60,695 bases of DNA. Source: an uncultured Candidatus Saccharibacteria bacterium (GTDB lineage: Bacteria; Patescibacteriota; Minisyncoccia; Phycocordibacterales; UBA918). A program made the translations under genes and the position numbers. The stretch's first letter is position 1; every line of letters begins with the position of its first letter. Shown one piece after another: positions 2,639-44,667 of the stretch. The notes beneath the pieces are model-generated. The model was not told where the DNA came from, did no database searches, and saw nothing but the letters and a program-made list of their open reading frames with translations. The DNA is taken from NCBI GenBank assembly GCA_964608605.1, contig CAZSOS010000001.1:55193-115887 (forward strand), in the 5' to 3' direction.

Positions 2639-5077
2639 ATGAGAAAGCTTACTAGCAGTCTGTCCGCATTTATTTTAATCACTGTTTTGGTGTTAGGGCC
2701 GGTGCCTTTTGCATTGCCTAAAATTGCAAATGCCGACACGCCCGATAGCGGTCTGATTGGTAACGTCATCAATATCTACGAATCCTATGTTGAAGATGCG
2801 AGTGTAAAGCTATCGTGTACCGATAGTTGGTATACGCTTGGATATACCGATATCGATGGTAACTACGAATTCACCATAGAAGATATTCTTGGATTTTTTG
2901 GAGACTCAGGATGTGAAGATGGTAGTCAGCTCCGCATTACTATTGAGAAAGAACACTACTATCCGATAGAGGAGCAAGTGGTAGCAACCATTAACTTTGC
3001 TGCTGCTAACGCGGAAACACTTGGAGAATGGGCGGAATGGTATTTCAATACGCTTCGTACGCATAGCTTTGTGTCAACACCGCGTCCAGCGGGGTGGTAT
3101 GGAGAGGTGATTGATGATGATACCTACGAGCCCATTGCGGGAGCAACACTTACTGTGTCATGTAGCACGCAAGATAGCTCACGAGTTATTGCGACTTCAA
3201 GCGAAGACGGAACCTATGAAATAACACAAAATCAATTTGTAGCGCAGTTGAATAGTATTGGGTGTTACTACGACAATAGCTTTGATGTGGTGGTGGTTGC
3301 GTCCTATGATGGATACGAGGATGATCTCTATACCGAGTCGAACGTGAGCGGAAGTGATATGGGTGCGTCATTCGACGAGCCTATGGAAGTGTCGTTCTAC
3401 TTGTATCCAGAGCCTATCGACCCGGCAACCTACTACGCAGAAGGTGACGGCTCAGAGAATAACCCATTCATTGTTGATACAGTTGAGCGATTTGAAGGTA
3501 TGGGAGATTTTCCTGAGTATGCGGAAGGTATCTACTTTGCACTCGATGTAGATATTACTTTAGGCGAGGAAGAAGGGTATATTGGCAACTTCTCAGGAGT
3601 ATTTGACGGGCGCAATCATACGATAACAGGGAATGACAGATCGTTGTTTGGTCGCCTCCAAGATGATGCGGTAGTGAAAAATCTCTTGATTGATACTGTC
3701 ATCCACTATGACTATTCAGAGAGTAATATCGGTATTTTGACTGGAAGAATGGAAGGGCAATCATATGTCGAGAATGTGCACGCGTCAGGGTCAATCAACG
3801 TAGAGTGTGGTTTCTCGGTGTGTGATCGTATTGGTGGTTTGGTAGGAGAAATGTCAGGTACTTCACGTATCTACCGCTCAAGCTCAAGTGCGGATTTGTT
3901 AAGTTCTGGTGACAACGTCTTTGCTTCTGGCGGTCTTGTTGGGTTCATGAATGGTGGAAGTATTGAGCAGTCATACGCAACCGGAGATGTGTATGCGGTA
4001 AGTGGCGCGGGCGGTCTTGTCGGCTCGGTAAATGGCACGCCAGAAACAACACGGGTGATTGACTCTTATGCCACAGGAAATGTATATACGCGAGGTCAAT
4101 ACTATAGCACCGCGGCGGGATTTGTAGGTGAGCTTGGGGGAGGTCTTGTTATGCGTTCGTACTCAACCGGTTCGGTCTTTGCGTCCACCACTCCGGCAGG
4201 AGGATTCGTTGGTGAGGTAAATAGCGAAGATGCGGTTATTGCGAATTCATTTTCAATTGCTTCGGAGGTGGAAGGAAATGGAGAAGTGGGTGGGTTCATG
4301 GGCTCTATCTACGCTGGTGAGGTTCGAAACAGCGCATGGCTTCGAGAGATCGGTAAAGATGCGGTTGGATTTGTAGACGGGGGTAGTGCCTGTGGTCTTA
4401 ATGGTCCACTTGATCTGCTTATGAGTGATGCGCCCTGTAATTTTGGGTACGACATTGGCACGCTTGATGAGTTCAAACATAACGGGTATGGCGGAGTAAT
4501 GGCACCAATGTATCTCGACGGCGAAGATTCATGGGACTTCGGTAACGTGTGGGGATTTGACGAGGATATTAACAATGGCTTGCCGTATCTTTTATGGGGA
4601 ACTGACTGGGAGCCTGACGATAATGAGGTGGTGACCCCACCAACTTCTGGAGGAAGTAGTACATCAGGTGGCCGTGGTTCTGGTATGGCTCGAGCGGTAC
4701 AGGCAGTGGCAAGCGGAGATATCGTGGCGCTATTGGCTCAGATAAATATTCTGATAGCTCAGCATATTGCGCGCGGTGGTGAAATGACTTCCCTGATGCA
4801 AGCTTTCTTGGCTGCTAATAATTCCACAAGAAATAACAGCCAGGCTCGTGACTTAGATGTTGGTTCAGTCGGAGACGATGTCAAAGCCCTGCAGAACGTC
4901 TTGATCAGCCAAGGATACTCGATTCCGGCGGGAGCGACCGGTCTTTTCCAAAACCAGACCCGAGCTGCTTTATCAGCTTATCAAGCGGCCAACAATATCG
5001 ATCCAGCGGTCGGCTATTTCGGCTCGATCACGCGAGCTTTCATGAAGTCCGCGGGCCTGGCGGGGTTGTGGTGGTAG
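2639..5077 (+). CDS. Secreted surface protein with GLUG repeats and C-terminal peptidoglycan-binding domain
   Basis: Signal peptide, repeated GGLVG/GGFVG motifs, Ser/Gly linker, DLDVGSVGDDVKALQ...GYFGSITRA tail. Confidence 0.85.
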   Translation: MRKLTSSLSAFILITVLVLGPVPFALPKIANADTPDSGLIGNVINIYESYVEDASVKLSCTDSWYTLGYTDIDGNYEFTIEDILGFFGDSGCEDGSQLRITIEKEHYYPIEEQVVATINFAAANAETLGEWAEWYFNTLRTHSFVSTPRPAGWYGEVIDDDTYEPIAGATLTVSCSTQDSSRVIATSSEDGTYEITQNQFVAQLNSIGCYYDNSFDVVVVASYDGYEDDLYTESNVSGSDMGASFDEPMEVSFYLYPEPIDPATYYAEGDGSENNPFIVDTVERFEGMGDFPEYAEGIYFALDVDITLGEEEGYIGNFSGVFDGRNHTITGNDRSLFGRLQDDAVVKNLLIDTVIHYDYSESNIGILTGRMEGQSYVENVHASGSINVECGFSVCDRIGGLVGEMSGTSRIYRSSSSADLLSSGDNVFASGGLVGFMNGGSIEQSYATGDVYAVSGAGGLVGSVNGTPETTRVIDSYATGNVYTRGQYYSTAAGFVGELGGGLVMRSYSTGSVFASTTPAGGFVGEVNSEDAVIANSFSIASEVEGNGEVGGFMGSIYAGEVRNSAWLREIGKDAVGFVDGGSACGLNGPLDLLMSDAPCNFGYDIGTLDEFKHNGYGGVMAPMYLDGEDSWDFGNVWGFDEDINNGLPYLLWGTDWEPDDNEVVTPPTSGGSSTSGGRGSGMARAVQAVASGDIVALLAQINILIAQHIARGGEMTSLMQAFLAANNSTRNNSQARDLDVGSVGDDVKALQNVLISQGYSIPAGATGLFQNQTRAALSAYQAANNIDPAVGYFGSITRAFMKSAGLAGLWW

Positions 5078-11016: not shown

Positions 11017-11091
11017 TTTTTAAAAGAAACGAATCCGTGTTGTAGTGATTACGCATCCCTATAACGTGCTAGCATTTTGCATCCAAGCGAT

Positions 11092-12384
11092 ATGCCAAAA
11101 AAGAAGCGAAACATCATAGCCTACGTCTCTAAGTTACCGGCGGAAGCGATCGCCGATATCCGGGTCTGGGAGAAAGAGACCGGCGAGCGATACCGGATCA
11201 TGCTGATAGAGAACGCCGCTCGAAAGTTCACCAAGAAGCAGTCCGGCGCCAATCTGGAAGGTGTCAATATCGTTGTATCCGTCGATTTTGGCAATGATTC
11301 CGCGCTTCAAGAAGCTCTGGCTCCGTACCAGGACCAGCTTTGCGCTATCACCAGCCGGGCCGAATCTTACCTGGCCGATTTCATCAAGATCATCCCGTTC
11401 GTGCCGTATCTGCCGGCTCCGACCCCGGAATCGTTGCGCTGGGCCAGTGATAAACGCTTGATGCGCCGCCACTTCAAGGTGGCCGATTCTTCGATATCTC
11501 CCAAGTACACTCTTGTCAGGAACGCTGAGGAAGCAGAGTTGGAGCGTGTGGTCGGCCAGGTCGGTTTTCCGATGATCGTCAAGCCGACCAATCTGGCTCA
11601 GAGCCTTCTGATCAGCGTCTGTCATCATCGTGATGAATTACGTAAGGCGGTCAAGGATATCCTGAAGAACATCGAGAAGATCTACGAAGAGAACGGGCGG
11701 ACCGAGCGGCCGCGCATCATCGCTGAAGAATATATGGATGGTCTGCAGTACTCCATCGACGCCTATGTTTCAGCCCGAGGTAAGGTCACTTGCTGTCCGT
11801 TGGTGCGTCAAAAGACCGGACACGACATCGGCCGGGATGACTTCTTCGGCTACTTGCAGTCGACCCCGACCGGGCTTTCCGCCGCTACGGTCAAGAAGGC
11901 CGAAGAGGTGGTCCGCCGCGGCGCGCACGCGCTCGGTCTCAGGAACACCACCGTGCACGTGGAATTGATGCGCATCGACAACACCTGGAAGATCATCGAG
12001 ATCGGCGCTCGCATTGGCGGCTTTCGTGCTCAGCTTCATCGTCTTTCCTGTGGCATCAATCACGGCATGAACGACGTGCTGGTGCGCATGGGGCGTCAGC
12101 CGGTGGTACCGCGCCGCTGCCGCCGCTTCGCGGCGGCCATGAAGTACTACGCCAAGGAAGAGGGGGAGATCGTTAGTATCCTGGGTCTCAAGAAGGTCGA
12201 GAAGTTGGCTTCTTTCCATAAGATCGAGATGCGCAAGAAGCGCGGGGACAAGAGCGTGTTCGCCAAAAACGGTGGCGGCGCCATCTTCGTATTGTATCTG
12301 GTGAACGATTCCCGTTCGGATCTGTTGGCTGATATCCGGCGGGTGGAGGAGACAGTGAAGGTTAAGGTTCAGAATGCCCTATGA
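11092..12384 (+). CDS. ATP-grasp domain protein (amino-acid-ligase-like)
   Basis: DKRLMR, FPMIVKP, IAEEYMDG, IIEIGARIGG. Confidence 0.85.
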   Translation: MPKKKRNIIAYVSKLPAEAIADIRVWEKETGERYRIMLIENAARKFTKKQSGANLEGVNIVVSVDFGNDSALQEALAPYQDQLCAITSRAESYLADFIKIIPFVPYLPAPTPESLRWASDKRLMRRHFKVADSSISPKYTLVRNAEEAELERVVGQVGFPMIVKPTNLAQSLLISVCHHRDELRKAVKDILKNIEKIYEENGRTERPRIIAEEYMDGLQYSIDAYVSARGKVTCCPLVRQKTGHDIGRDDFFGYLQSTPTGLSAATVKKAEEVVRRGAHALGLRNTTVHVELMRIDNTWKIIEIGARIGGFRAQLHRLSCGINHGMNDVLVRMGRQPVVPRRCRRFAAAMKYYAKEEGEIVSILGLKKVEKLASFHKIEMRKKRGDKSVFAKNGGGAIFVLYLVNDSRSDLLADIRRVEETVKVKVQNAL

Positions 12385-13226
12385 AGTTGGCCTTGGTCGC
12401 TTTCTCTGACAAGCAGGAATTTCGTCTCCAAATAAGAGAGGAGATGATAGATCGTGGTCATCAGTGTGATCTTAAGCCGTTTTCTGTCCTGCCTATCAAC
12501 GCGAGCATGATGGATGACGTGTTCATGGTGCTGCGTCAATATGACGTGGTACATTTCGTGCTAGGTTTCAACGAAGAGCTCGCTAAAACTTTACAAGCGA
12601 GGCTATCATCTGAAGGAGTAATTTGTCCAAATAATAGAAGCAACGCCACGAACATAAACGACAAGATATTCCAGATGGTAGAACTGGCTAAAGTTGGGGT
12701 GCCTACACCTCGTTCTGTCAGATTAGTGAGTCCTGATAAATCCGAAGTCAGGGCTAGTCTAGGTTTTCCTTGTGTGATCAAAGAACCTGTGGGGAGTAAG
12801 GGTGAAAAAGTAGCTTTGTGCACTGAGAATAATTTTGATGAAGTCATAAAACCCAACAAAGAGTACCTAGGACAAGAGCTCGTAAGATACACCGCTGACT
12901 ATCGGGTGCATGTAGCGGGTAACGAGACTTTCTGCATTTACGAACGAGTAGCGCCGGAAGGTGATTTTAGGGCGAACGTATCTCTTGGTGGAGCCATGAA
13001 AAAGGTCGATGACGCAGAATTGCTGATAAGATTATCTGAATTGGCTCTTCAGACAACTCGAGCCTTATCCATGGATTATGGAGGAGTAGATATCATCAAG
13101 GATGAGTCAGGCAATCTGTTCGTGTTGGAATTCAATCCGAATCCTGGTTTCAAAAATGTTACAGATGTTACTGGAGCACCCTTCTATAGGCACGTGGCTG
13201 ATTACTACGAGTCGTTGATGCAATAG
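12381..13226 (+). CDS. RimK-family ATP-grasp ligase
   Basis: PCVIKEPVGSKG, DYRVHV, FRANVSLGG, GGVDII, LEFNPNPG; visibly AT-richer than its neighbours. Confidence 0.88.
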   Translation: MKLALVAFSDKQEFRLQIREEMIDRGHQCDLKPFSVLPINASMMDDVFMVLRQYDVVHFVLGFNEELAKTLQARLSSEGVICPNNRSNATNINDKIFQMVELAKVGVPTPRSVRLVSPDKSEVRASLGFPCVIKEPVGSKGEKVALCTENNFDEVIKPNKEYLGQELVRYTADYRVHVAGNETFCIYERVAPEGDFRANVSLGGAMKKVDDAELLIRLSELALQTTRALSMDYGGVDIIKDESGNLFVLEFNPNPGFKNVTDVTGAPFYRHVADYYESLMQ

Positions 13227-13246
13227 GTTTGTTGTATAATACATTC

Positions 13247-13801
13247 ATGATTCGCACGCGTGATTTTTTGGTGTTCTCAGTGGCCTTAGTGTTCCTATTT
13301 TCCGGGATCACCGCCACGGTGGTATCTGATTCTTTTTCCGGCGCTGGCGGGCAGGTGGCTAGCGTGGCCAGCTTCGCGGCCCCGGCCGCTATTAGCGGCG
13401 CCGAACCCGCTGCTTCTAGCGACGACAATGCCGCCAACGTTGCCCGCCTGAAGGCCAAGATCGCCGCCGGAGATGGCGACATCGCCGCGGGAGAGCCGAT
13501 CTTCACTTCGGTCGACACCGTGACCGCCACCACGGCCGTGACTCTCACCGACCAGACTCCGGATTCGGCGATGATCGGGCACACGCTGGATGGTCAGCCG
13601 CTTCTGAGCGGGGATCTCTGGCGTTTCGTCGGCTTCGGTCCGGGCGATCAGATAGGCGTGGCCTTGAACGATCGGCCGATATTCGGTCCGCGCTCCGATG
13701 ATTTCGTTCTCGACGCTTGCGGGGGAGTAGATGAGGGCTTCGGCTACCGTTACCACTTCCAGCCCGGGAAGACTATCGATCCGGTTTGTTACGCAAATTA
13801 A
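13247..13801 (+). CDS. Membrane-anchored hypothetical protein with YHYH-like C-terminus
   Basis: N-terminal TM; GVALNDRPIFG...LDACGG...GYRYH. Start 6 nt after TATAAT. Confidence 0.55.
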   Translation: MIRTRDFLVFSVALVFLFSGITATVVSDSFSGAGGQVASVASFAAPAAISGAEPAASSDDNAANVARLKAKIAAGDGDIAAGEPIFTSVDTVTATTAVTLTDQTPDSAMIGHTLDGQPLLSGDLWRFVGFGPGDQIGVALNDRPIFGPRSDDFVLDACGGVDEGFGYRYHFQPGKTIDPVCYAN

Positions 13802-13806
13802 CTTTT

Positions 13807-13835
13807 TATAAAAGCGCCCAAAGGGCGCTTTTATA
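13807..13835 (+). terminator. Intrinsic terminator
   Basis: TATAAAAGCGCCC-AAA-GGGCGCTTTTATA. Confidence 0.75.
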
Positions 13836-13852
13836 TCTGTTATAATTTAGAT

Positions 13853-13993
13853 ATGTCTGACAGAAAATTCCCCGAAGGATTCTATTGGGGTGAGACGAGG
13901 CAGTGCCTCGTCGCAAGGCCGGACTGGAGCGGAGTGGAAGGAGGCGGGGTCGCGCAAATTTTTATTAAATTTCTTAATAAAAATTATGTGTGA
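13853..13993 (+). pseudogene. Displaced original 5' end of the GH1 gene (MSDRKFPEGFYWG) running into the inserted element
   Basis: ATG 6 nt after TATAAT; the first 13 codons match the GH1 FPxxFxWG motif; stops at TGA 13991-13993. Confidence 0.75.
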
Positions 13994-14046
13994 CCGGCTA
14001 CGGCCTCAAAGTATATGAAACAATTTCCAAAAAATTTTTACTGGGG
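13891..14046 (+). mobile_element. 156-bp folded insertion supplying a replacement gene start
   Basis: Bounded by TATTGGGG / TACTGGGG. Hairpins at 13894-13912 and 13948-13995. Ends in a diverged copy of the GH1 N-terminus. Confidence 0.6.
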
Positions 14047-15238
14047 CGCGGCCGCGGCCTCATACCAAGTAGAAGGAGGGATCGAGAACACGGATTGGGC
14101 CAAGGCGGCCCGCGAAGGTCGGGTGCCACCCTGCGGCCGCGCTTGCGATCATTATCATCGCTATGAAGCGGATTTCGATCTGGCCAAAGAGCTCGGACAC
14201 AACGCGCATCGACTATCGGTGGAGTGGGCGCGCATCGAGCCTGAGGAAGGGAAATTCGACGAGGCGGCCATCGAGCATTACCGAGAAGTGTTGCGGGCGC
14301 TGCGCGCCCGTGGCCTGGAACCCTTCATCACCATCTGGCACTTTACTCTGCCGCTATGGTTCTCCGAAAGGGGAGGATTCGAGAACAAGGATTCGATCGA
14401 GATCTTCGCTAGGTACTGCGCCTACGTCGTCGACCAGCTCGGCGATCTCTGCGTCAATTTCTCCACCATCAACGAGCCCTCAGTGTATGGCTCCAACGGC
14501 TGGCTGCGCGGCAGCTGGCCGCCCTTCAAGCGCTTCGCGGCCACCGACCTGGTAGCCATCACGAATTCCGGTCGCACCTTCGAGTCTAAAGCTAATAAAG
14601 GTATCAAACCTTTATTCACTTGGATGAGGGTGATGAAGAATCTTGCCCGGGCCAATAACGCCGCCTACCGGGAGATAAAAAAAGTGCGTCCGGAGACCAA
14701 TATCAACTTCGTGCACCATGTCATCGTCTTCGACTCAAATTGGAATCCGTTCAACAAGCTCAAGGCCTATATCGCCAATAGTCAGTGGACCCATAAGTTC
14801 ATGAAGCGCACGGCCGGCCATTATGACTCGATCGGACTGAACTATTATTTCTATACAAAGTTCGGCGATAAACGAGAGTGGCGCAAGACCGACATGGATT
14901 GGAACTTCGCTCCCGAACGCATCTATGACGCCTTGATGATGTTGAAACGTTATCAGAAACCCATCTACGTATCGGAAGCCGGTATCGCCGACGCGGCGGA
15001 TTCTGGCAGGGCGGAATATATCACCAGACAGGTGGAAGGAACGTGGCGCGCCCTTAAAGACGGCGTGGACGTGAGAAGCCATATCTACTGGTCCCTGCTC
15101 GACAACTACGAGTGGGCGCTCGGGTTCGATAAGCGTTTCGGCCTGATCAAGATCGATTACGACACCTTGGAGCGCAAGGTGCGCCCGAGCGCGTATGTTT
15201 ATAAAAAGATCATCGCCGATAACGGGCTAGAATCTTAA
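14015..15238 (+). CDS. Glycoside hydrolase family 1 (beta-glucosidase-like)
   Basis: FYWGAAAASYQVEG, TINEP acid/base, YVSEAG nucleophile, WSLLDNYEW. Confidence 0.95.
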   Translation: MKQFPKNFYWGAAAASYQVEGGIENTDWAKAAREGRVPPCGRACDHYHRYEADFDLAKELGHNAHRLSVEWARIEPEEGKFDEAAIEHYREVLRALRARGLEPFITIWHFTLPLWFSERGGFENKDSIEIFARYCAYVVDQLGDLCVNFSTINEPSVYGSNGWLRGSWPPFKRFAATDLVAITNSGRTFESKANKGIKPLFTWMRVMKNLARANNAAYREIKKVRPETNINFVHHVIVFDSNWNPFNKLKAYIANSQWTHKFMKRTAGHYDSIGLNYYFYTKFGDKREWRKTDMDWNFAPERIYDALMMLKRYQKPIYVSEAGIADAADSGRAEYITRQVEGTWRALKDGVDVRSHIYWSLLDNYEWALGFDKRFGLIKIDYDTLERKVRPSAYVYKKIIADNGLES

Positions 15239-15301
15239 AATGGACCTATTTGTTTCTGGATATCCTTTTTAATTTTGAGATTTTCATTCTAAAATTGAAA
15301 C

Positions 15302-16234
15302 ATGTCCTGGGTTTTTCTGGCAGCCGGCGCGCAACTCCTCAATGCTATCGTCGCCATCGGTGACAAGTATCTGGTAACCGACGAACGGCGGATGCCCAAA
15401 CCGTTCGTGTACGGTTTTTATACTTGTCTGCTGACGTCCTTTTGGCTCCTCATTTATCCCTTCGGCTTCATTCCGCAATTAGCCGCGCTGGGGATACCGC
15501 AATTCAGCAACATTCAATTTCCCACGCTCGAAGTCGTGGGGCTCTCGTTCTTCTCGGCTTACACTTTCTTCCTGGCCATCGTATCCCTCTACGGCACCTT
15601 AAAGCGGGCCGACACCTCGGACGTGATGCCTGTGGTCGGCGCCGTGTCGGCCATCGCCACCTTTGGTCTGTCGGTGTTGTTTCTCAACTCGGCCTACTCC
15701 TCGAACGTGATTTGGGGCGTGCTTCTCTTGGCTACCGGCACCTTCTTGGTATCGCATCTGCGTTTTTCCACCAACATCGCTTTAGCGGCGGTTCATAGCG
15801 GTCTTTTCTTCGCGCTTCATTACATTTCGATGAAGGGCCTCTTTATCTCCACTAACTTCGATGACGCCTTCTTTTGGTCGCGCGTGGCATTGATCCTCTT
15901 CGCTCTTTCTTGGCTTTTGGTACCGAATTATCTCGACGTCATCAAGACCCAGAGCAAATCCACTTCGAAGACCACCGGGGTCATGGTCTTTGGCAACAAG
16001 ATCTTGGCTGGCGTGGCGTCATTCATGATCCTCAAGGCGACCGACTGGGGCGACGTGGCGGTGGTGCAGGCGCTCGATGGTCTTAAGTTTGTGTTCATCC
16101 TACTGATCGGACTGGCTCTCGGTTCGTGGTTGCCTAAAGCAGCTCGAGAGAAGGACCGCAGCTTCCGCACCATCGTGCGCAAATTCCTTTACGTGACCAT
16201 TATTTGTATCGGTTTTATTCTTTTGTTCGAATGA
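15302..16234 (+). CDS. EamA/DMT-like membrane transporter
   Basis: 310 aa, about 10 TM segments in two repeats. Confidence 0.65.
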   Translation: MSWVFLAAGAQLLNAIVAIGDKYLVTDERRMPKPFVYGFYTCLLTSFWLLIYPFGFIPQLAALGIPQFSNIQFPTLEVVGLSFFSAYTFFLAIVSLYGTLKRADTSDVMPVVGAVSAIATFGLSVLFLNSAYSSNVIWGVLLLATGTFLVSHLRFSTNIALAAVHSGLFFALHYISMKGLFISTNFDDAFFWSRVALILFALSWLLVPNYLDVIKTQSKSTSKTTGVMVFGNKILAGVASFMILKATDWGDVAVVQALDGLKFVFILLIGLALGSWLPKAAREKDRSFRTIVRKFLYVTIICIGFILLFE

Positions 16235-17247
16235 GTACGGTTAGAAAATGGCTTACATATATCGGCGTGGTCGTCTTGGCCTTTACGGTAGTAGGCGCCG
16301 CGTTCTTTTTTATCCATGACAAGCCGGAACCGGAGCGGATCGTCTATGGCATGTCATTCAACACCTTCTATGCCGAGGAGCTCGGACTCGATTGGCGCGA
16401 GGCGTACGACGCCATACTGAACGACCTAGGGGTACGCCATCTGCGCCTGGCCGCTCACTGGCCGATGCTAGAGCCCGAGCGCGGCCACTTCTCCTTCGCC
16501 GAGATCGATCATCAGCTCACGGAGGCCGAAAAGGTCAGCGCGGACGTGATCCTGGCGGTCGGCCGCCGTTTGCCCCGGTGGCCCGAGTGCCATATCCCGG
16601 AGTGGGCGGCCGGTCTGTCCTGGGAGGAACAGAAAGAAGAATTGCGCGCCTATATCGAAGCGGTGGTAACCCGCTATCGCGGTCATGACAGCGTCATCAT
16701 GTGGCAAGTGGAGAACGAACCTTATCTGGGGGTCTTCGCCCGCGAACATTGCGACGAACTCGATGAAGAATTCCTGAAGGAAGAGATCGCCTTGGTAAAA
16801 AGCCTCGATCCGTCCCGTCCGGTCTTGGTTACCGACAGTGGCAATCTGGGCACCTGGTCCGGCGCCTATCGGCACGGCGACGCCTTCGGCACCAGCGTGT
16901 ACGTCTATTTTTGGAATCCGGAGTTCGGCCAGTTTAGGAGCATGCTGCCGCCTTGGTTCTATCGCGCCAAAGAGGCTCTCGTTCGCCTTATCTATGGCGC
17001 CAAACCGACCTACCTGATCGAGCTTTCGGCCGAGCCTTGGCTCTTGGAACCCATCACCAACGTCGACGTCGAGACGCAGTATTCGCGCATGGATGTCGGC
17101 AAGGTCCGGGAGATCGTTGAATATGCCGAGAAAACCCGCTACGATAAGCAATATCTATGGGGCGCGGAGTGGTGGTATTGGCTGAAGCAGAGAGGCCATG
17201 ATGAAATGTGGGAACTAGGGCGAGAGCTGTTTCAAGTTAAAAATTAA
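16231..17247 (+). CDS. Membrane-anchored clan GH-A glycoside hydrolase (beta-galactosidase/GH5-like)
   Basis: TM anchor, GRRLPRWPECH, WQVENEP, IELSAEPW, LWGAEWW. ATG overlaps the upstream TGA. Confidence 0.75.
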   Translation: MSTVRKWLTYIGVVVLAFTVVGAAFFFIHDKPEPERIVYGMSFNTFYAEELGLDWREAYDAILNDLGVRHLRLAAHWPMLEPERGHFSFAEIDHQLTEAEKVSADVILAVGRRLPRWPECHIPEWAAGLSWEEQKEELRAYIEAVVTRYRGHDSVIMWQVENEPYLGVFAREHCDELDEEFLKEEIALVKSLDPSRPVLVTDSGNLGTWSGAYRHGDAFGTSVYVYFWNPEFGQFRSMLPPWFYRAKEALVRLIYGAKPTYLIELSAEPWLLEPITNVDVETQYSRMDVGKVREIVEYAEKTRYDKQYLWGAEWWYWLKQRGHDEMWELGRELFQVKN

Positions 17248-20759: not shown

Positions 20760-20949
20760 TTTATGATATCCTCAATGATATCATAAACCTCTATCCGCAC
20801 CATCGACCATACCAACCGGTCCACACGGTCTTGATATCATTGAGGATATCATAAGTTTGAAAACCTTTGAGTCTTAGTGTCATCAGAAGTATCAGAACTT
20901 ACGTGAGCTTGCACGTTACCACTTCTTGATATCATTGAGGATATCATGA
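20760..20949. repeat. Array of three GATATC-N6-GATATC dyad sites (one inverted, two direct)
   Basis: Sites at 20760-20787 (spacer CTCAAT), 20829-20854 and 20924-20949 (spacer ATTGAG). Confidence 0.9.
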
Positions 20950-20953
20950 CCAA

Positions 20954-20986
20954 GTAAAGGCCGGCCCCGTAGGGGCCGGCCTTTAC
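20954..20986. terminator. Terminator-like hairpin downstream of rnj
   Basis: 15-bp perfect stem GTAAAGGCCGGCCCC/GGGGCCGGCCTTTAC. Confidence 0.75.
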
Positions 20987-33240: not shown

Positions 33241-33300
33241 ATTAAAAAGGCCGCCCCTTCGGGGCGGCCTTTATCGTTACCAGACCTAGTTCTCTTGCAA

Positions 33301-33452
33301 AGGCGGAGAGAATTTCTCTCATTACATGAGCAGTACACCTTTTGGATATTTTGCTCCAAGTTTTCGCAAAATACCTCAAAAGGTCTTCGAATCTCACGAA
33401 ACAGTCTCCCAGACTGTTTCTTCCGTCCACCTGGACTCACTTCGTTCGTCTG
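33301..33452 (-). mobile_element. ~155-bp folded element downstream of tRNA-Ser, ending in a degenerate copy of the tRNA T-arm/acceptor
   Basis: Direct repeat AGGCGGAGAGA at 33301-33311 and 33456-33466; internal hairpins. Confidence 0.55.
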
Positions 33453-33539
33453 CGGAGGCGGAGAGATTCGAACTCTCGAAGCCCTTTCAGGCTTACCACG
33501 ATTCCAGCGTGGCGCACTAGACCACTATGCGACGCCTCC
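33453..33539 (-). tRNA. tRNA-Ser(GGA), CCA not encoded
   Basis: Acceptor GGAGGCG/CGCCTCC, anticodon arm CCACG-CTGGAAT-CGTGG, long variable arm, GTTCGAATC T-loop, discriminator G. Confidence 0.97.
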
Positions 33540-39696: not shown

Positions 39697-42600
39697 ATGA
39701 ACCAGTTATTCTTTGCCGCTGATGCCGCTCGAAAGTTGTTCGCGGCCGTCGCGATCTTTTCCTTACTATCCACTTCACTGCCTATTAATGTCTACGTGGC
39801 TTTGGCGGAAGAGATTTCTTCTGAAGCTCCAGTAGAAACTCAGGCAGTGGAGACTCTGGAAGTTGTTCCGGCTGAAGTTCCGGTTGAGGAAACTTCTACT
39901 CCTGAGGAAGAGACCGTGGATGTACCGGCTGTCGACGAGGAAAAGGTAGATTCAGAAGAGTCTAAGTTAGACGAAGAAACAGCTGGTGAGACTGAACAAA
40001 CCAAGGCAGGTGTTGTTGATGATACTGTCGACACGGAATCTCCTGTAACCGACACAACTGAGACTGTTGAGAAAACTGAAGAAGCCAAAGGAGTTATTTC
40101 TACCGTAGTAGAAAAGGTAGTTGATACCGCCAAGTCTGCGGTAGAAGCTATATTTGGCAAGTCAGTAATCTTGACTCTTGGTGACGAAGGTATTGCCACT
40201 ATTGATACTGTTGAACTCGGTGTTACCTACGTAGCTCCACAAAATCCTGAGGTGAAAGTTGTTTTCACCAAACTTCCTGAAGTTCCAGGCTCTCTCTCTA
40301 TAGAAGAAGTAGAGTTAACTCCAGAACAAGTAGAAGCCTTGGGCGCTCTCAGTAATGTTGCCTACGACATTACTTCTAGTATGGAGAATGGTACTTTCGA
40401 GTACAAACTAGAACTTCCTAAGCCAACCGGCGCTTCTTCCGACTCAAAGGTAGTTTATGCTGAAAGTGTTGAGGAATTGGCTAACTCCACAACCGTGGCT
40501 GATGAGAAGGTGGCAGTGAAGTCCAACAAGGTGGTGGTAGAAGAATTGGATCACTTCACCATTTTCGTGGTTACTTCATTTGAAGAGGTGCAGGTTACTG
40601 ATGTTGAGGTTGGTTATAACGGTATTTGGTTTTCTGCGAGTTCTTACGGATCAATAGAGCGTGTTGAATCAGGTACTAATGGAATTATTTCATCAGACGG
40701 TGACGCTCATGCATTAGTATCATCTGTTGGTTATTCCTCGGGTCCTTATACTAGATTTGATGGTTACAAGAGTGTATGGCCAGGAAATTGGAAGACAGAG
40801 ATTGATGTTTATCTAGATCCCGCATGGAGTAATGGTACAGGTTTTCAGTATTCAGTAGCGTCAAACGGTTCAGATGGAAACCATCAGCGTGACTATATTT
40901 TCCATGTTACTAAAGATACATCTACAGGTAAATTACTAGTCGCTGGTAACAATAATTCTACTGCACCTAATGTTCGTGAAGATCTAGAAACCATCACTAA
41001 TCGTTATGAGGTAACAACTGCTGGTTGGTACACTTTGCAGCACCTGTTTTATGATGACGGAGGCGTATTGTCGGTTGACTTGAATCTGCTTGATGACTCA
41101 GGAAGTACTGTCTTCACAGAGAAAAGACAAGGTCAAAATTCTGGTCCGAATGATGACTCGATGGCTCTGATTGGTGGTAATCGTTATGGTTGGTTTACAG
41201 TAGTAACTGTCCCTGGAGGTCTTGCTATCGACAATGCTTCCATTGAATACACTTCTCTTCCGCTTAACGAAACGACGGTCGTTGTTCGTTCGAGCGACAT
41301 GCAAGGTTGGTCAGAAGCCAATACTGTGGGAGGTGTTGTAGCTTTCATTGATGATGCCACAGCACCGATTGGTGATGGGGTGTTGAATTTGACTACTCAG
41401 TCAGACAATCAAGATCGCGCTGGTATTAGTCGCACTGAAGATGTTCGTTTGGCTGATGTTACTACCCTTAAATACACTACAAAGCGAGGTGCGGGATTTG
41501 CAGACGTAGGTAGCGCATCCTACCGCATCCTTATAGATGCTGATGGCGATGATTCTACTGTGACCGACAGGGCATACTTAATCCATGAGCCATATTGGCA
41601 AAATGATGAAGCTCCAGATCCCGCTCCTGTTGTACAAAATGAATGGCAGACTTGGGACGTTAAAAGCAATAACGTATTCTGGGCCAGTATTCCTGGAGGT
41701 AATGCCATTTCAGGTTTGACTAACGGCGCTGGAGGACCTCCTTTCTACACGATTGCCAACGTACTCGCGTTACATCCTAACGCTAAAGTTATAGGTCTTA
41801 ATATCGGCATTGGTTCTTCTAACCTGAACTATAATATTCTCGTTGATGAAGTTGTATTTGGTTACAAGACAGGTTCTTCTATAGAAGTAATTACTTACGA
41901 CTTTGAAGCAGATCCTCCACATCCAGATCCTCTTGGAAAGCACCAGATGAGTCTGACTGGTAATGTATACCGTGACCACAAGTTGAATGACTGTAACGGA
42001 TTGACCTCTTGTAACTCTAAAGGTGAAAATCTAGGTGAAGGGTGGGAGATAAACTTGTATGACTCAAACTGGTCATCATTGCAGAGTGTTCAGACAAATA
42101 GTGCTGGCAACTTCAAGTTCGCCGCTGTAAAAGATGCTGGTACTTATTATGTCTGTCTTGTAGAAAAAGAAGGCTGGACCCAGCAGACTCAAAACTGGTC
42201 CGGTACTCCGTATCACATAGCCACCGATAACCAGTCTAGCAACTCCGATGAAGGTCCTTGGTGTCGTGTGATCAATTATTCTGATACTGGAAATTATTCC
42301 AATGCATTTTATTTCGGAGTAGTTGATACAGAAGCCCCTGTAGGTAATGCCGTATATCACGGCGGAAGTGTGGTGGACGATGTAATCTACATTAAGTCTA
42401 TTGACGATCTATCCTTCACGGAAACCATTACTGATAATCATGGAGTTACACGCTCTACTTACTTGGTGCAAAAATTCAGTACCACAACAAACAGTTATGT
42501 AGGATTCTGTGGTAACTGGAATGCGCTTAGTCTGGGTAGTAACTGGTTGGGAGGTTCAATTACTGAAGTTCATACTGTAAATAGTATTCGTAACTGTGAC

Positions 42601-44667
42601 GGTTCGGCCACGCTATGGACTGATGGTAAATATAAAATCTTCCATGGAGCTTACGATGCGACTTATGTAACAGCAGGTCCAACACATAACGAAGGAAAGT
42701 ACAACACAGATCGTCAAGTATTTGTGATTGATGGTTCTGCCCCTGACGTCCAAATCACTTATCCTGCGAATAATCATGTTGTAAGCGGAGTAATTGAACT
42801 AAAGGGGACTGTGAAAGACGATAATCTCCTAAGGTACTACTACAATGTTAGTGGCGTAACTTTTGAGACAGTCACTCAAGATAATGGTTTTGTGGATCAG
42901 GTCTTCTATACTTGGGACACTACCAGTGTGGCTGATGGTACATACACGATTAGACTAGAGGCGCGAGACAAGGCGGATAATAAGGATTCAGGTTCTGTTT
43001 CCACTATCACCGTGACTGTAGACAACACTGCACCAGAAGCACCTACAAACCTCCATCGTGTCCTCGCTGACAACACTTTCGTGCCCTGTGATGCTACCAT
43101 CAGACCTTCTGCGACCGCTCCTACTTGGACAGCCAGTGTCAGTCCAGATGTTGCGTACTACGAATACAGCAGCTTCAACAAAAATGGCGTTCCAGGCATC
43201 GTGGCTGAAAATATTGGTAATGTAACCTCATTCACTCGTGGTATCGATATAAATTGGATTCCTACTGAGGGAGCGGGTTATAAGTATGCTGTGCGAGCGG
43301 TAGACCATATTGGTAACAGGTCTGCCTGGGCGGAGTGTGGTATTACTTACGACAACAGTGTAGCGGTGGCAGTCATTGGCATTCCTTCCATTCAGTATCC
43401 AGCAAATGGTTCTATTATCGCCACGGGCACTCCTGACTTTATTTGGAACCCTATAACCTATCCTGAAACTCTCACTTATTCTATAGAGGTTTCTACGACA
43501 CCCGATTTCGCATCGTTGATTCCAAATGCGATGCATTATGGTTGGACCATTACGACAGCTAACTTCCCTGGAAACACGCCAGCTCTAGTAGATGGTACTT
43601 ATTACTGGAGAGTAAAGGCTTGTGATAGCTTTAACAATTGTGGAGATTGGGGAGTTTGGAGCTTTGTTGTAGATACGACAGGCCCTTTGCCGCCTACTAA
43701 TTTGACTTGGACATCATCATCTACGTTGGCTATTGTACCTAATGGCGGCACCACTTCAGATCAGTACGGAGCTATTAGTTGGACAGAAGGGGATCCAGAC
43801 ACCGTTCTTTATAGAATGTATGCATGGAATGATATTGTCGGTTCTGACTTGTTTGGAGACTTTAGTTCCAGACACTTGGTTGTAGAAGGATATGCTACAG
43901 AATTTCTAGGTGGTGATTTCTACTTTGGAGAAGGTACTTATAGCGTCTGTCTTACGGCAATTGATGCCATGGGGAACGAATCAGAATGTAGTGATGTATT
44001 AACCGTAACCTATGCGGTACCATCCACACCTGTTGTGACACCATCTGGCAGCTCTATCAATGCTATTGGTAGTATTGCCAGAACTGTGGCGAGCGCTATT
44101 CCAAGCGTTCTCGGTGCCTCGACCTTCGCTACTGACGGTGATTACTGTACTGACCCTTATATCACCCAGAACCTAGGTTTCGGACGAGCTAACGATTCTG
44201 GAGAAGTGACTAAGTTGCAGAGTTTCCTTAATCGAGTCCTTGGTTTGGCTTTGCCTGTTACCGGATTCTTTGGTCCGTTGACCCAGCAAGCAGTAATGGC
44301 CTTCCAGACCACTCACGCTGCTGAGATATTGGCTCCTTGGGGGCTTACCAACCCAACCGGTTTCGTTTATCACACCACCATCAAGAAGATCAACGAGTTG
44401 GTCTGTGATAATCAAAAGGAGTTTCCTTTGACTGAGGCTCAGCTGGAAGAAATCGCTGGCCGCCAGGCTCCAGCTACTCCTGCCACTCCGGTAGTAGCTC
44501 AAAGTCCTACCGTTACTCCAGCTTCAACCATAGCCGGTGCTTCAACTGTTTCTGGAGAGGAGGATGAAAGCTCTGACTCAGCGGACGAATCGTCTTCTGT
44601 GGAAGAAGTTAAGGTAGAAAAACCAGGATTCTTCAAGAAGATCTGGAATTCCATCTTTGGAGGCTAG
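39697..44667 (+). CDS. Giant (1656 aa) secreted surface protein: acidic linker, multiple beta/Ig/FN3-like modules, peptidoglycan-binding domain
   Basis: Signal peptide, LDHFTIF, DNTAPEAP/DTTGPLPP FN3-like starts, EVTKLQSFLN...GFFGPLTQQAV tail; AT-richer. Confidence 0.85.
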   Translation: MNQLFFAADAARKLFAAVAIFSLLSTSLPINVYVALAEEISSEAPVETQAVETLEVVPAEVPVEETSTPEEETVDVPAVDEEKVDSEESKLDEETAGETEQTKAGVVDDTVDTESPVTDTTETVEKTEEAKGVISTVVEKVVDTAKSAVEAIFGKSVILTLGDEGIATIDTVELGVTYVAPQNPEVKVVFTKLPEVPGSLSIEEVELTPEQVEALGALSNVAYDITSSMENGTFEYKLELPKPTGASSDSKVVYAESVEELANSTTVADEKVAVKSNKVVVEELDHFTIFVVTSFEEVQVTDVEVGYNGIWFSASSYGSIERVESGTNGIISSDGDAHALVSSVGYSSGPYTRFDGYKSVWPGNWKTEIDVYLDPAWSNGTGFQYSVASNGSDGNHQRDYIFHVTKDTSTGKLLVAGNNNSTAPNVREDLETITNRYEVTTAGWYTLQHLFYDDGGVLSVDLNLLDDSGSTVFTEKRQGQNSGPNDDSMALIGGNRYGWFTVVTVPGGLAIDNASIEYTSLPLNETTVVVRSSDMQGWSEANTVGGVVAFIDDATAPIGDGVLNLTTQSDNQDRAGISRTEDVRLADVTTLKYTTKRGAGFADVGSASYRILIDADGDDSTVTDRAYLIHEPYWQNDEAPDPAPVVQNEWQTWDVKSNNVFWASIPGGNAISGLTNGAGGPPFYTIANVLALHPNAKVIGLNIGIGSSNLNYNILVDEVVFGYKTGSSIEVITYDFEADPPHPDPLGKHQMSLTGNVYRDHKLNDCNGLTSCNSKGENLGEGWEINLYDSNWSSLQSVQTNSAGNFKFAAVKDAGTYYVCLVEKEGWTQQTQNWSGTPYHIATDNQSSNSDEGPWCRVINYSDTGNYSNAFYFGVVDTEAPVGNAVYHGGSVVDDVIYIKSIDDLSFTETITDNHGVTRSTYLVQKFSTTTNSYVGFCGNWNALSLGSNWLGGSITEVHTVNSIRNCDGSATLWTDGKYKIFHGAYDATYVTAGPTHNEGKYNTDRQVFVIDGSAPDVQITYPANNHVVSGVIELKGTVKDDNLLRYYYNVSGVTFETVTQDNGFVDQVFYTWDTTSVADGTYTIRLEARDKADNKDSGSVSTITVTVDNTAPEAPTNLHRVLADNTFVPCDATIRPSATAPTWTASVSPDVAYYEYSSFNKNGVPGIVAENIGNVTSFTRGIDINWIPTEGAGYKYAVRAVDHIGNRSAWAECGITYDNSVAVAVIGIPSIQYPANGSIIATGTPDFIWNPITYPETLTYSIEVSTTPDFASLIPNAMHYGWTITTANFPGNTPALVDGTYYWRVKACDSFNNCGDWGVWSFVVDTTGPLPPTNLTWTSSSTLAIVPNGGTTSDQYGAISWTEGDPDTVLYRMYAWNDIVGSDLFGDFSSRHLVVEGYATEFLGGDFYFGEGTYSVCLTAIDAMGNESECSDVLTVTYAVPSTPVVTPSGSSINAIGSIARTVASAIPSVLGASTFATDGDYCTDPYITQNLGFGRANDSGEVTKLQSFLNRVLGLALPVTGFFGPLTQQAVMAFQTTHAAEILAPWGLTNPTGFVYHTTIKKINELVCDNQKEFPLTEAQLEEIAGRQAPATPATPVVAQSPTVTPASTIAGASTVSGEEDESSDSADESSSVEEVKVEKPGFFKKIWNSIFGG

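Follow-up and report, generated by a model that had tools for sequence, protein, structure and literature searches.

The window, as the whole analysed stretch of 60,695 nt of contig CAZSOS010000001.1 is called here, carries a family 1 glycoside hydrolase (GH1) gene that has two starts. The 156 nt at positions 13891-14046, which separate the first start from the body of the gene, are an insertion composed of one copy of a structured element and a spare copy of the first 11 codons of the gene. The element is a member of a large modular repeat family of Paceibacteria (Parcubacteria).

Two starts and two allelic states at the GH1 locus

The upstream gene (13229-13801, 190 aa) is followed on the plus strand by an intrinsic terminator hairpin (13807-13835, a 13-bp stem and then a T run), which is the end of the preceding transcription unit. 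Next on the same strand stands the extended -10 promoter TGTTATAAT (13838-13846), with TG at 13838-13839 and TATAAT at 13841-13846, 6 nt ahead of the first GH1 ATG. The segment opened by this ATG, called X1 (13853-13890, plus strand), is the orphaned ancestral start of the gene (MSDRKFPEGFYWG) and ends with the first TGGGG of the locus (13886-13890). Its open reading frame begins at ATG 13853 and runs for 46 codons, the first 13 of which are X1, to the stop codon TGA at 13991-13993. Behind X1 lie a perfect 8-bp hairpin (GACGAGGC-AGT-GCCTCGTC, 13894-13912) and a long second hairpin with G.U pairs (about 13946-13996). The functional replacement start X2 (14015-14046, plus strand; MKQFPKNFYWG) has its ATG at 14015, ends with the second TGGGG (14042-14046) and leads into the intact GH1 beta-glucosidase gene (14015-15238, plus strand), which encodes 407 aa and has PF00232 homologues over its full length at up to 89% identity.

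The initial annotation, made from the sequence alone, had placed two GH1 starts, a promoter and hairpins here. All of them are present, and the same arrangement occurs in five other genomes. Chance is further discounted by the fold of 13853-14060 (z = -3.4), which is more stable than those of all 200 shuffles. It had also stated that removal of 13891-14046 restores an in-frame gene and that one TGA separates the two frames. Both starts lie in one frame (14015-13853 = 162) with a single stop between them, and the in-silico deletion of the 156 nt gives MSDRKFPEGFYWGAAAASYQ, in agreement with the real N-terminus of L201 (MSDRKFPDGFYWGAATASYQ); L-numbers denote loci from other genomes that were compared with the window.

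The GH1 protein has thousands of relatives in metagenome-assembled genomes (MAGs) of Parcubacteria/Paceibacteria, and the alignment of the loci bore out the proposed contrast between an insertion and empty alleles. The three closest relatives of the window gene are all empty, namely L201 (89% amino acid identity), L202 (87%) and L203 (86%). In the empty alleles, found in many genomes, an extended -10 box stands 6-7 nt before an MS/T-D/E-KKFP start that leads directly into the gene; the TGnTAtAaT box at 6-7 nt before the ATG is present in the empty orthologues L019, L009, L004, L010, L201 and L202. The L201 gene starts with MSDRKFPDGFYWG, which is identical to X1 of the window in 33/39 nt, and the codon differences are five synonymous and one non-synonymous.

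Filled alleles, with the element after the same TGGGG, were found in six genomes (the window, L001, L008, L011, L013 and L030). Their order is an upstream ATG..FPxGFxWG copy ending in TGGGG, then GUGAG(A), hairpins and a second complete start, and the 5' module of the element lies at the identical GH1 position in the five loci other than the window. All six filled alleles, with GH1 identities as low as 55%, retain the X1 ATG, its reading frame and the FPxGFxWG motif, while the inserts at this site measure 135, 145, 148, 156 or 166 nt and their frames vary. L203 is the empty counterpart of the filled L001, and the DNA upstream of the two can be aligned. Empty and filled alleles with clean boundaries, a mark of integrative elements that replace a gene end, were thus seen in L201, L202 and L203 against the window and L001. 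In L012, the upstream copy is possibly degenerate and without the TGGGG.

Two further loci show possible deletion scars at the GH1 start. In L003 (about 2950-3010), the promoter-proximal ATGTCTAAA is followed by a stop and then by an MK-type ATGAAA..TTTCC start. In L005 (about 790-830), it is followed by an in-frame GTA and then by a start of the same type.

That the arrangement arose without any mobile element, through a simple local tandem duplication or as an assembly chimera, has next to no probability. Two similar starts 162 nt apart would fit such an origin, and metagenome assemblies can collapse or chimerise strain variants. The identical architecture is, however, seen in independent assemblies of different studies, the intervening sequence fits covariance models derived from other genomes, and X1 and X2 are unequal in length and alike in only 15/24 nt over the FP..WG codons.

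The GH1 family (proteins P0001-P0120) comprises two N-terminal classes, which correspond to X1 and X2. Members of the MS/T-D/E-KKFP class have 409 aa and their own leaderless extended -10 promoter, whereas those of the MK.FP class have 406-407 aa and are native in L204-L206; starts of the MK.FP kind are common in the family. The MK.FP ATG lies 1-3 nt after the stop codon of the upstream gene in L204 and L205, while L206 has the TGTTATAAT box with a 7-nt gap before its ATG. X2 of the window agrees with the native L205 start in 30/33 nt and with X2 of L001 in 28/33 nt, the gene body of L205 being only 72% and that of L001 70% identical to the body of the window gene. The body of the window gene is L201-like from the first nucleotide after TGGGG, and no foreign 5' tract was detected in it, the identity between the window and L201 being 0.85 already in the first 60 nt after TGGGG. 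With an L205-like X2 next to an L201-like promoter, X1 and body, the locus is a mosaic. From these sequence comparisons, the second start looks brought in and not freshly duplicated, which upholds the proposal of the initial annotation that the insertion carries its own replacement copy and is no fresh tandem duplication.

The neighbour-joining tree contains the sister pairs (window, L201) and (L001, L203), and filled and empty alleles interleave in it. This topology requires at least two gains of the element or else three precise losses. A quite unlikely explanation is that the filled state is old, was inherited vertically and was kept as a domesticated leader for the control of GH1 translation by an upstream open reading frame (uORF) and a folded RNA, so that the empty alleles of the MSDKK and MK types would be two alternative deletions. 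The agreement of the two N-terminal classes with X1 and X2 speaks for a domesticated leader, as do L003 and L005, which look like scars of partial deletions, the retention of the X1 ATG, frame and FPxGFxWG in the six filled alleles with a uORF open in 8/8 copies, and the compensatory changes in the element between L008 and L011, which share the insertion site. On the other hand, filled and empty alleles interleave among close relatives, X2 is nearer to L205 than vertical descent predicts, copies within one genome have been homogenised, and the orthologous sites of the window and L001 hold different core types, L001 having a type-1 copy (98 bits) where the window has a type-2 core. Moreover, the family also occurs at tRNA genes, in a kinase gene and at intergenic sites, which argues against a regulator specific to GH1. 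A riboswitch or cis-regulatory leader was likewise considered and rejected, with the same cores found after tRNA genes, in tRNA 5' fragments, in the kinase gene and in intergenic DNA.

A modular family of structured repeats

The architecture of the family is a 5' hairpin module followed by one of two core types, and the element measures about 105 nt. The type-1 consensus, based on eight copies, has three hairpins and reads GUGAGA-P1-UCGCAAGA, P2, UGUACNG and P3 with a CUGUAAG loop. Compensatory changes were found in 18/28 base pairs of type 1 and in 14/22 of type 2. The type-1 helices contain 2538 Watson-Crick, 72 G.U and 32 A.C cells, and the excess of G.U over A.C points to the folding of one particular strand, either RNA or single-stranded DNA. 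Among the G.U pairs of type 2, the one at alignment columns 75/127 is invariant (9/9) and that at columns 77/125 is G.U in 5/9 copies. The cores also have conserved single-stranded motifs (AAGA, UGUAC, CUGUAAG; GAGGCGGGGUCGCG, UGUGACC).

Three covariance models were used, R1 and R2 for type 1 and R3 for type 2, the last built from nine copies without that of the window. In the GH1 copy of the window, R1 and R2 matched only the 5' module (13890-13917, plus strand; 19.9 and 18.8 bits), which consists of GUGAGA, the P1 hairpin (13894-13901/13905-13912) and UCGCAAG. The copy had on this account been considered a decayed type-1 element, an interpretation that was rejected once a BLAST search with the remainder outside the 5' module had revealed the type-2 core. 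R3 matches 13912-13996 (plus strand) at 52.6 bits with an E value of about 1e-12 and has no other match in the window. The core comprises GCCGGA, hairpin A, GAGGCGGGGUCGCG, the AT-rich hairpin B and UGUGACC, and the uORF stop TGA at 13991-13993 falls within the conserved UGUGACC. The purine tract and the 21-bp hairpin described in the initial annotation are conserved parts of this core.

A degenerate pattern scan of JGI metagenomes collected at least 120 loci. The type-1 models gave at least 116 plus 51 matches in those loci and a further 11, often with several per contig and with some in tandem arrays, and R3 found at least about 42 type-2 copies over the same loci. The family as a whole has at least about 210 copies in 1.4 Mb of related contigs, so that similar elements do occur at other loci, as had been anticipated. 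The modules recombine, and a type-1 P3 followed by a type-2 3' hairpin was found, as was a type-2 core followed by a P3-like hairpin. The element as a coding sequence was considered and rejected; frames differ among loci, and the helix covariation alters the encoded peptide.

The family proved not to be a known Rfam family, as had been supposed. E-value scans of the window locus, L001 and L011 against Rfam 15 gave no match on the element, the best matches scoring 14-24 bits against gathering scores of 45-100 and falling on the terminator. The scan of 12 element-rich loci at the gathering thresholds returned only tRNA and 5S rRNA. The degenerate pattern had 10 matches in 2.9 million viral contigs, none of them confirmed by a model, and BLAST searches of phage and plasmid collections gave no match to the element. 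No description of the element family was found in full-text literature searches.

The earlier suggestion of an intron-like nature found no support. Removal at the RNA level, by an intron or by translational bypass, would join X1 to the GH1 body with X2 inside the removed or skipped segment and would give the GH1 N-terminus MSDRKFPEGFYWGAAAA..., where initiation at X2 would give MKQFPKNF. The points in favour are that the loss of exactly 156 nt restores both the frame and the orthologous N-terminus, that UGG GGN stands at both borders with a hairpin starting 4 nt after the first, and that the differences between X1 and L201 are mostly synonymous. Such removal is nevertheless very improbable. 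Rfam gave no group I, group II or ribozyme match at E <= 10, self-splicing introns are far longer than about 105 nt, the inserts at this site range from 135 to 166 nt with varying frames, no stop follows the putative take-off codon, and X2, with an ATG of its own, shows conservation as coding DNA. At tRNA genes, the element has a dead fragment upstream and an apparently complete gene copy downstream, so that the upstream fragment would have only an already complete gene to splice to.

Specific candidates of this kind were also rejected. A group I intron would have a P3-P9 core with a G-binding site, more than 200 nt, a 5' exon ending in U and an intron ending in G, whereas the element has about 105 nt and its 5' border follows a G. 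A group II intron, with 5' GUGYG, 3' AY, domain V and a length of several hundred nt or more, is matched only partially by GUGAG, and no domain V/VI match was found in Rfam. In comparison with programmed bypass of the T4 gene 60 type, UGG GGU and UGG GGC match, but the next codon is GAG and not a stop, and the gap is 156 nt. The insert does resemble the bypass elements of T4 gene 60 and mitochondria (byps) as a structured insert in a coding region with matching border codons. It differs from them in having no stop right after the take-off codon and a downstream copy with its own AUG, which makes bypass unneeded. To our knowledge, the GH1 gap is also three times as long as any known hop.

tRNA genes and other hosts

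The contexts of the copies do not support a conserved coding motif as the target of the element. The majority are at tRNA genes or intergenic, and the junctions share only G-rich or AGG/G microhomology. Among the matches listed, 182/213 copies lie outside long open frames and 69/177 type-1 copies (39%) lie within 200 nt of a tRNA gene, 62 of the 69 on the same strand and 48 of those downstream of the gene; the tRNA-proximal type-2 copies are all on the tRNA strand (16/16). Two arrangements can be distinguished. In the tRNA 3' type, the order is the tRNA gene, a terminator, an inverted copy of the last ~21 nt of the tRNA, the core and a direct repeat of the tRNA segment that extends from the T-loop to the 3' end. 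The antisense arms of the tRNA-type copies are interrupted by hairpins.

In the 5' type, the order is X-element-(short Y remnant)-spacer-X-Y, where X spans the gene from about +1 up to the point of insertion, and the copy downstream is intact. Its hosts are GH1, tRNA-Gly (X = 49 nt), tRNA-Ala (twice), tRNA-Thr, -Ser, -Leu, -Arg and -Met, and a P-loop kinase gene. Direct repeats of 12-70 nt abut the 5' end of the element, and their second copy is continuous with the intact tRNA or kinase gene. Copies inside genes always have the order X-element-X-Y, with the second X never more than 165 nt from the element; since the displaced gene end is duplicated, an intact gene remains. At some tRNA hosts, a -10-like sequence lies just upstream of the downstream copy. 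At the junctions between X and the element, 3-8 nt are microhomologous to the 5' end of the element itself (AGG/GUGAG, GGUUU).

At the GH1 locus, 13995-14013 (plus strand) is Y*, a decayed remnant of GH1 codons ~15-23 (after WG; ATAS..QV). The local alignment to 14049-14071 (CGGCTACGGCCTCA--AAGTA against CGGCCGCGGCCTCATACCAAGTA) has a shuffle p of 0.016. The layout is therefore X1 - element - Y* - X2 - Y, and an old 5' gene fragment is interrupted by the element. Similar remnants follow the element at the tRNA hosts L140, L146 and L111, whereas none of significance was found in the other GH1 alleles.

The window has a second member of the family, with a type-1 core, at 33315-33420 on the minus strand (R1 50.4 bits, R2 65.9 bits). 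It is located 31 nt downstream of tRNA-Ser(GGA) (33452-33539), the sole tRNA gene in the window, and is preceded by a decayed antisense arm and followed by a decayed direct copy of the tRNA 3' end (AATTCTCTCCGCCTTTGCA, 33296-33314). L118 has the orthologous tRNA-Ser together with an element.

Several further arrangements were observed around tRNA and other genes. The antisense arm of L091, L115, L130, L113, L143, L092 and L093 has a conserved hairpin with the loop AACUGCU exactly at the acceptor/T-stem junction, so that the arm resembles a mini-tRNA in which one arm replaces the D and anticodon domains. Tandem arrays of 2-4 units stand directly after a tRNA gene in L100 (4655-5009), L096 (139-391), L094 (6888-7119), L116 (6949-7236) and L156 (14005-14223); the L100 array has a period of 88 nt, and each unit of L096 also repeats the tRNA 3' end and terminator. 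Tail-to-tail inverted pairs of elements form large palindromes near tRNA genes in L014 (2684-2833), L008 (5218-5415) and L140 (8077-8227). The P-loop kinase-like gene of L107 (100-900, minus strand; MTNLLIGITGTDGAGKGT...) holds two successive element units after GAGKG, which results in three copies of its first 17 codons, and each upstream frame is closed by a TAG located 1 nt ahead of the following ATG. In L136 (1711-1968), a type-2 element whose 5' module is GUGA-P1-GCAAG was found 83 nt from a 5S rRNA gene and on the opposite strand, and rRNA gene neighbourhoods may thus also be targets.

These contexts bear on another explanation, which we regard as unlikely, namely a retroelement resembling short interspersed nuclear elements (SINEs). 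A reverse transcriptase (RT) would copy the element RNA, use microhomology to switch to an abundant RNA of the host, either a tRNA or a leaderless mRNA, and run to its 5' end, and the cDNA of X and element would then recombine in beside the source gene. The hosts are abundant RNAs, and X at the tRNA hosts begins at or near +1 with unrelated DNA upstream of the two copies (L111, 49/49 nt; L110; L085). The microhomology of 3-8 nt at the junction of X and element and the co-orientation with the tRNA strand among the matches listed (62/69 type-1, 16/16 type-2) are consistent with such copying. The G.U count of 72 against 32 A.C and the invariant G.U pair of type 2 suggest a folded RNA, and the inverted copies and tail-to-tail pairs look like snap-back products. 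Against reverse transcription, no RT is present in the window and none is linked to the family, the direct copies of tRNA 3' ends reach only as far as the genomic sequence and lack an added CCA, and the L096 repeat unit includes the terminator, which argues for duplication at the DNA level. Furthermore, X2 resembles the start of another lineage and not X1, where a local retro-copy predicts otherwise, and the conservation of tRNAs is so high that an abrupt boundary at +1 may just mark where conservation ends.

Integration and expression

The reading that we favour, with about even confidence, is a non-autonomous integrative cassette made of the element and a replacement gene end and served by an enzyme in trans. 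The unit of element and X2 would recombine with its target through a short sequence common to X2 and the gene (here ...TGGGG), and the enzyme would be a recombinase of the host or of a helper, possibly acting on a folded single strand. Direct repeats with reconstitution of the gene, which such elements leave behind, were found at GH1 in six genomes, at the kinase gene and at seven tRNA types. The proposal of the initial annotation that the element is tiny and non-autonomous agrees with the content of the DNA. No open reading frame for an integrase or any other protein is present in the insert itself, and Pfam scans of 40 open reading frames gave no integrase, recombinase, transposase or RT anywhere in the 60-kb window. 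The search for an autonomous version, made within 9 kb, gave no direct-repeat partner more than 165 nt from the element.

Several points weigh against this cassette. No integrase or recombinase encoded by the element or linked to the family was found, and the excised circle and the att-type core sequence expected of such a cassette are hypothetical. A cassette that bears a piece of each target explains poorly the spread to so many different targets. The repeat at tRNA hosts starts at or within a few nt of +1 with unrelated DNA upstream (L111, L110, L085), although the 29-nt repeat of L153 includes 5 nt upstream of +1, and copying from the 5' end of an RNA would explain a boundary at +1 no less well; junction microhomology that is G-rich only is also expected from template switching. 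The different cores of the window and L001 indicate that the two insertions were neither recent nor derived from a single donor, and one old insertion followed by three exact losses may also account for the alleles. Sequence exchange between copies of the same genome, as between the two L008 copies with their common P2-P3, blurs the history of the family. The sequence data do not cleanly separate the cassette, the reverse transcription and the domesticated leader.

The closest parallels are genomic islands at tRNA genes, P4-type prophages and e14/phage 21 (3' end of icd), which insert in a gene end and carry a replacement for it. As in these, the insert lies between direct repeats of the end of the target gene, one copy being continuous with an intact gene and the other orphaned, the replacement copy differs at synonymous positions, and filled and empty alleles exist among relatives. 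The preference for tRNA genes with a repeat from the T-loop to the 3' end and the tandem arrays at one site are also shared. The differences are that the element measures about 105 nt and the insertion 135-166 nt instead of kilobases, that no protein is encoded, that the core has conserved hairpins, that 5' ends are targeted as well and supplied with a new start, and that there are many targets per genome with repeats of 12-70 nt.

A folded single strand is the recombination site of CTX-phi type IMEX elements and of integron attC. Like these, the tRNA-type copies, with two inverted target copies around a structured spacer of ~70-100 nt, would fold to a duplex that mimics the target, and tandem arrays and a strand-specific excess of G.T(U) over A.C are found. 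In contrast to them, the target is the tRNA 3' end and not dif/attI, no phage genome or cassette open reading frame is carried, and the GH1 copy lacks the inverted arm.

Miniature inverted-repeat transposable elements (MITEs), Correia elements, REPIN/BIME and Rickettsia palindromic elements are similar in their length of ~100 nt, high copy number, richness in hairpins and mostly intergenic position, sometimes within the transcribed or translated part of a gene. The element differs from such small repeats in having no terminal inverted repeats of its own and no fixed short target duplication, but a long and variable duplication of the gene end, and in its conserved single-stranded core motifs and a covariation far beyond what is usual for MITEs. 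A MITE, defined by its own terminal inverted repeats and a fixed target site duplication of 2-10 bp, was rejected for this family, in which the flanking repeats of 12-70 nt are copies of host gene ends and the inverted arms match the neighbouring tRNA.

It is possible, though on balance doubtful, that the family represents a new minimal class of mobile element, whose target specificity lies in nucleic acid carried or copied from the target, or else the first bacterial SINE-like element chimeric with host RNA 5' ends. The target-specifying nucleic acid may in the former case be the direct copy of the gene end, to which the tRNA-type copies add an inverted copy as a single-stranded target mimic, and the ~100-nt scaffold may be re-addressable to tRNA genes, mRNA 5' ends and other sites without disruption. 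If the interpretation as a mobile element is correct, Paceibacteria (candidate phyla radiation) harbour in their streamlined genomes an abundant, structured and protein-free mobile element that enters tRNA genes, which are presumably essential, and the starts of protein genes harmlessly, a spare gene end travelling along or being made alongside. This would be a new minimal integration strategy, in which a piece of the target carried by the cassette may be all that specifies the target. Beside many tRNA genes, orphaned tRNA fragments, inverted repeats and tandem arrays would build up, a leaderless mRNA would become dependent on a uORF, and MAG annotation would contain wrong starts, spurious small open reading frames and pseudo-tRNA fragments.

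As for the expression of the interrupted gene, the box at 13838-13846 is predicted to be used as a promoter, and a leaderless transcript should start at or near 13853. The ancestral extended -10 promoter would thus still yield a leaderless RNA from the X1 AUG, ribosomes would translate the orphan uORF of 46 codons through the element to UGA 13991 and would reinitiate at the X2 AUG, 21 nt downstream. The X1 frame is open through the element in 8/8 copies in coding hosts (GH1 in six genomes, the kinase gene twice), even as internal frames vary, and the uORF stops fall in the range from -24 to +5 nt around the next ATG (8/8), while the same frame is open in only 22/86 (26%) of the copies in non-coding contexts. 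The conserved leaderless promoter and the lack of a Shine-Dalgarno sequence before X2 suggest termination-reinitiation after the orphan uORF, by which GH1 is probably expressed; an upstream frame that ends a few nt from the main start is also the arrangement of known termination-reinitiation coupling. The same lack weighs on the other side, reinitiation at the X2 AUG being a prediction from the nucleotide sequence. The initial suggestion of an mRNA regulated by a uORF or a structure gains some support from the open frames (8/8 against 26%).

In the remainder of the window, 20903-20979 is a weak match to the type-1 models (15 and 10.8 bits, E 0.07-0.8); it is mostly a GC-rich, terminator-like hairpin and is probably spurious. 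The gene order at 13229-17247 is kept across Paceibacteria and comprises the 190-aa protein (no Pfam match), GH1, a 310-aa membrane protein and a GH42/GH5-like hydrolase, whose open reading frame (16204-17247) has a TTG start and overlaps the preceding gene by 31 nt. Immediately upstream of this neighbourhood, at 11077-13226, are two neighbouring genes for ATP-grasp ligases (ATP-grasp_4 and RimK-like) that overlap by 4 nt. The open reading frame at 39697-44667 encodes 1656 aa with only Big_7, SdrD_B-like and peptidoglycan-binding matches, and its product is probably a large cell-surface protein.

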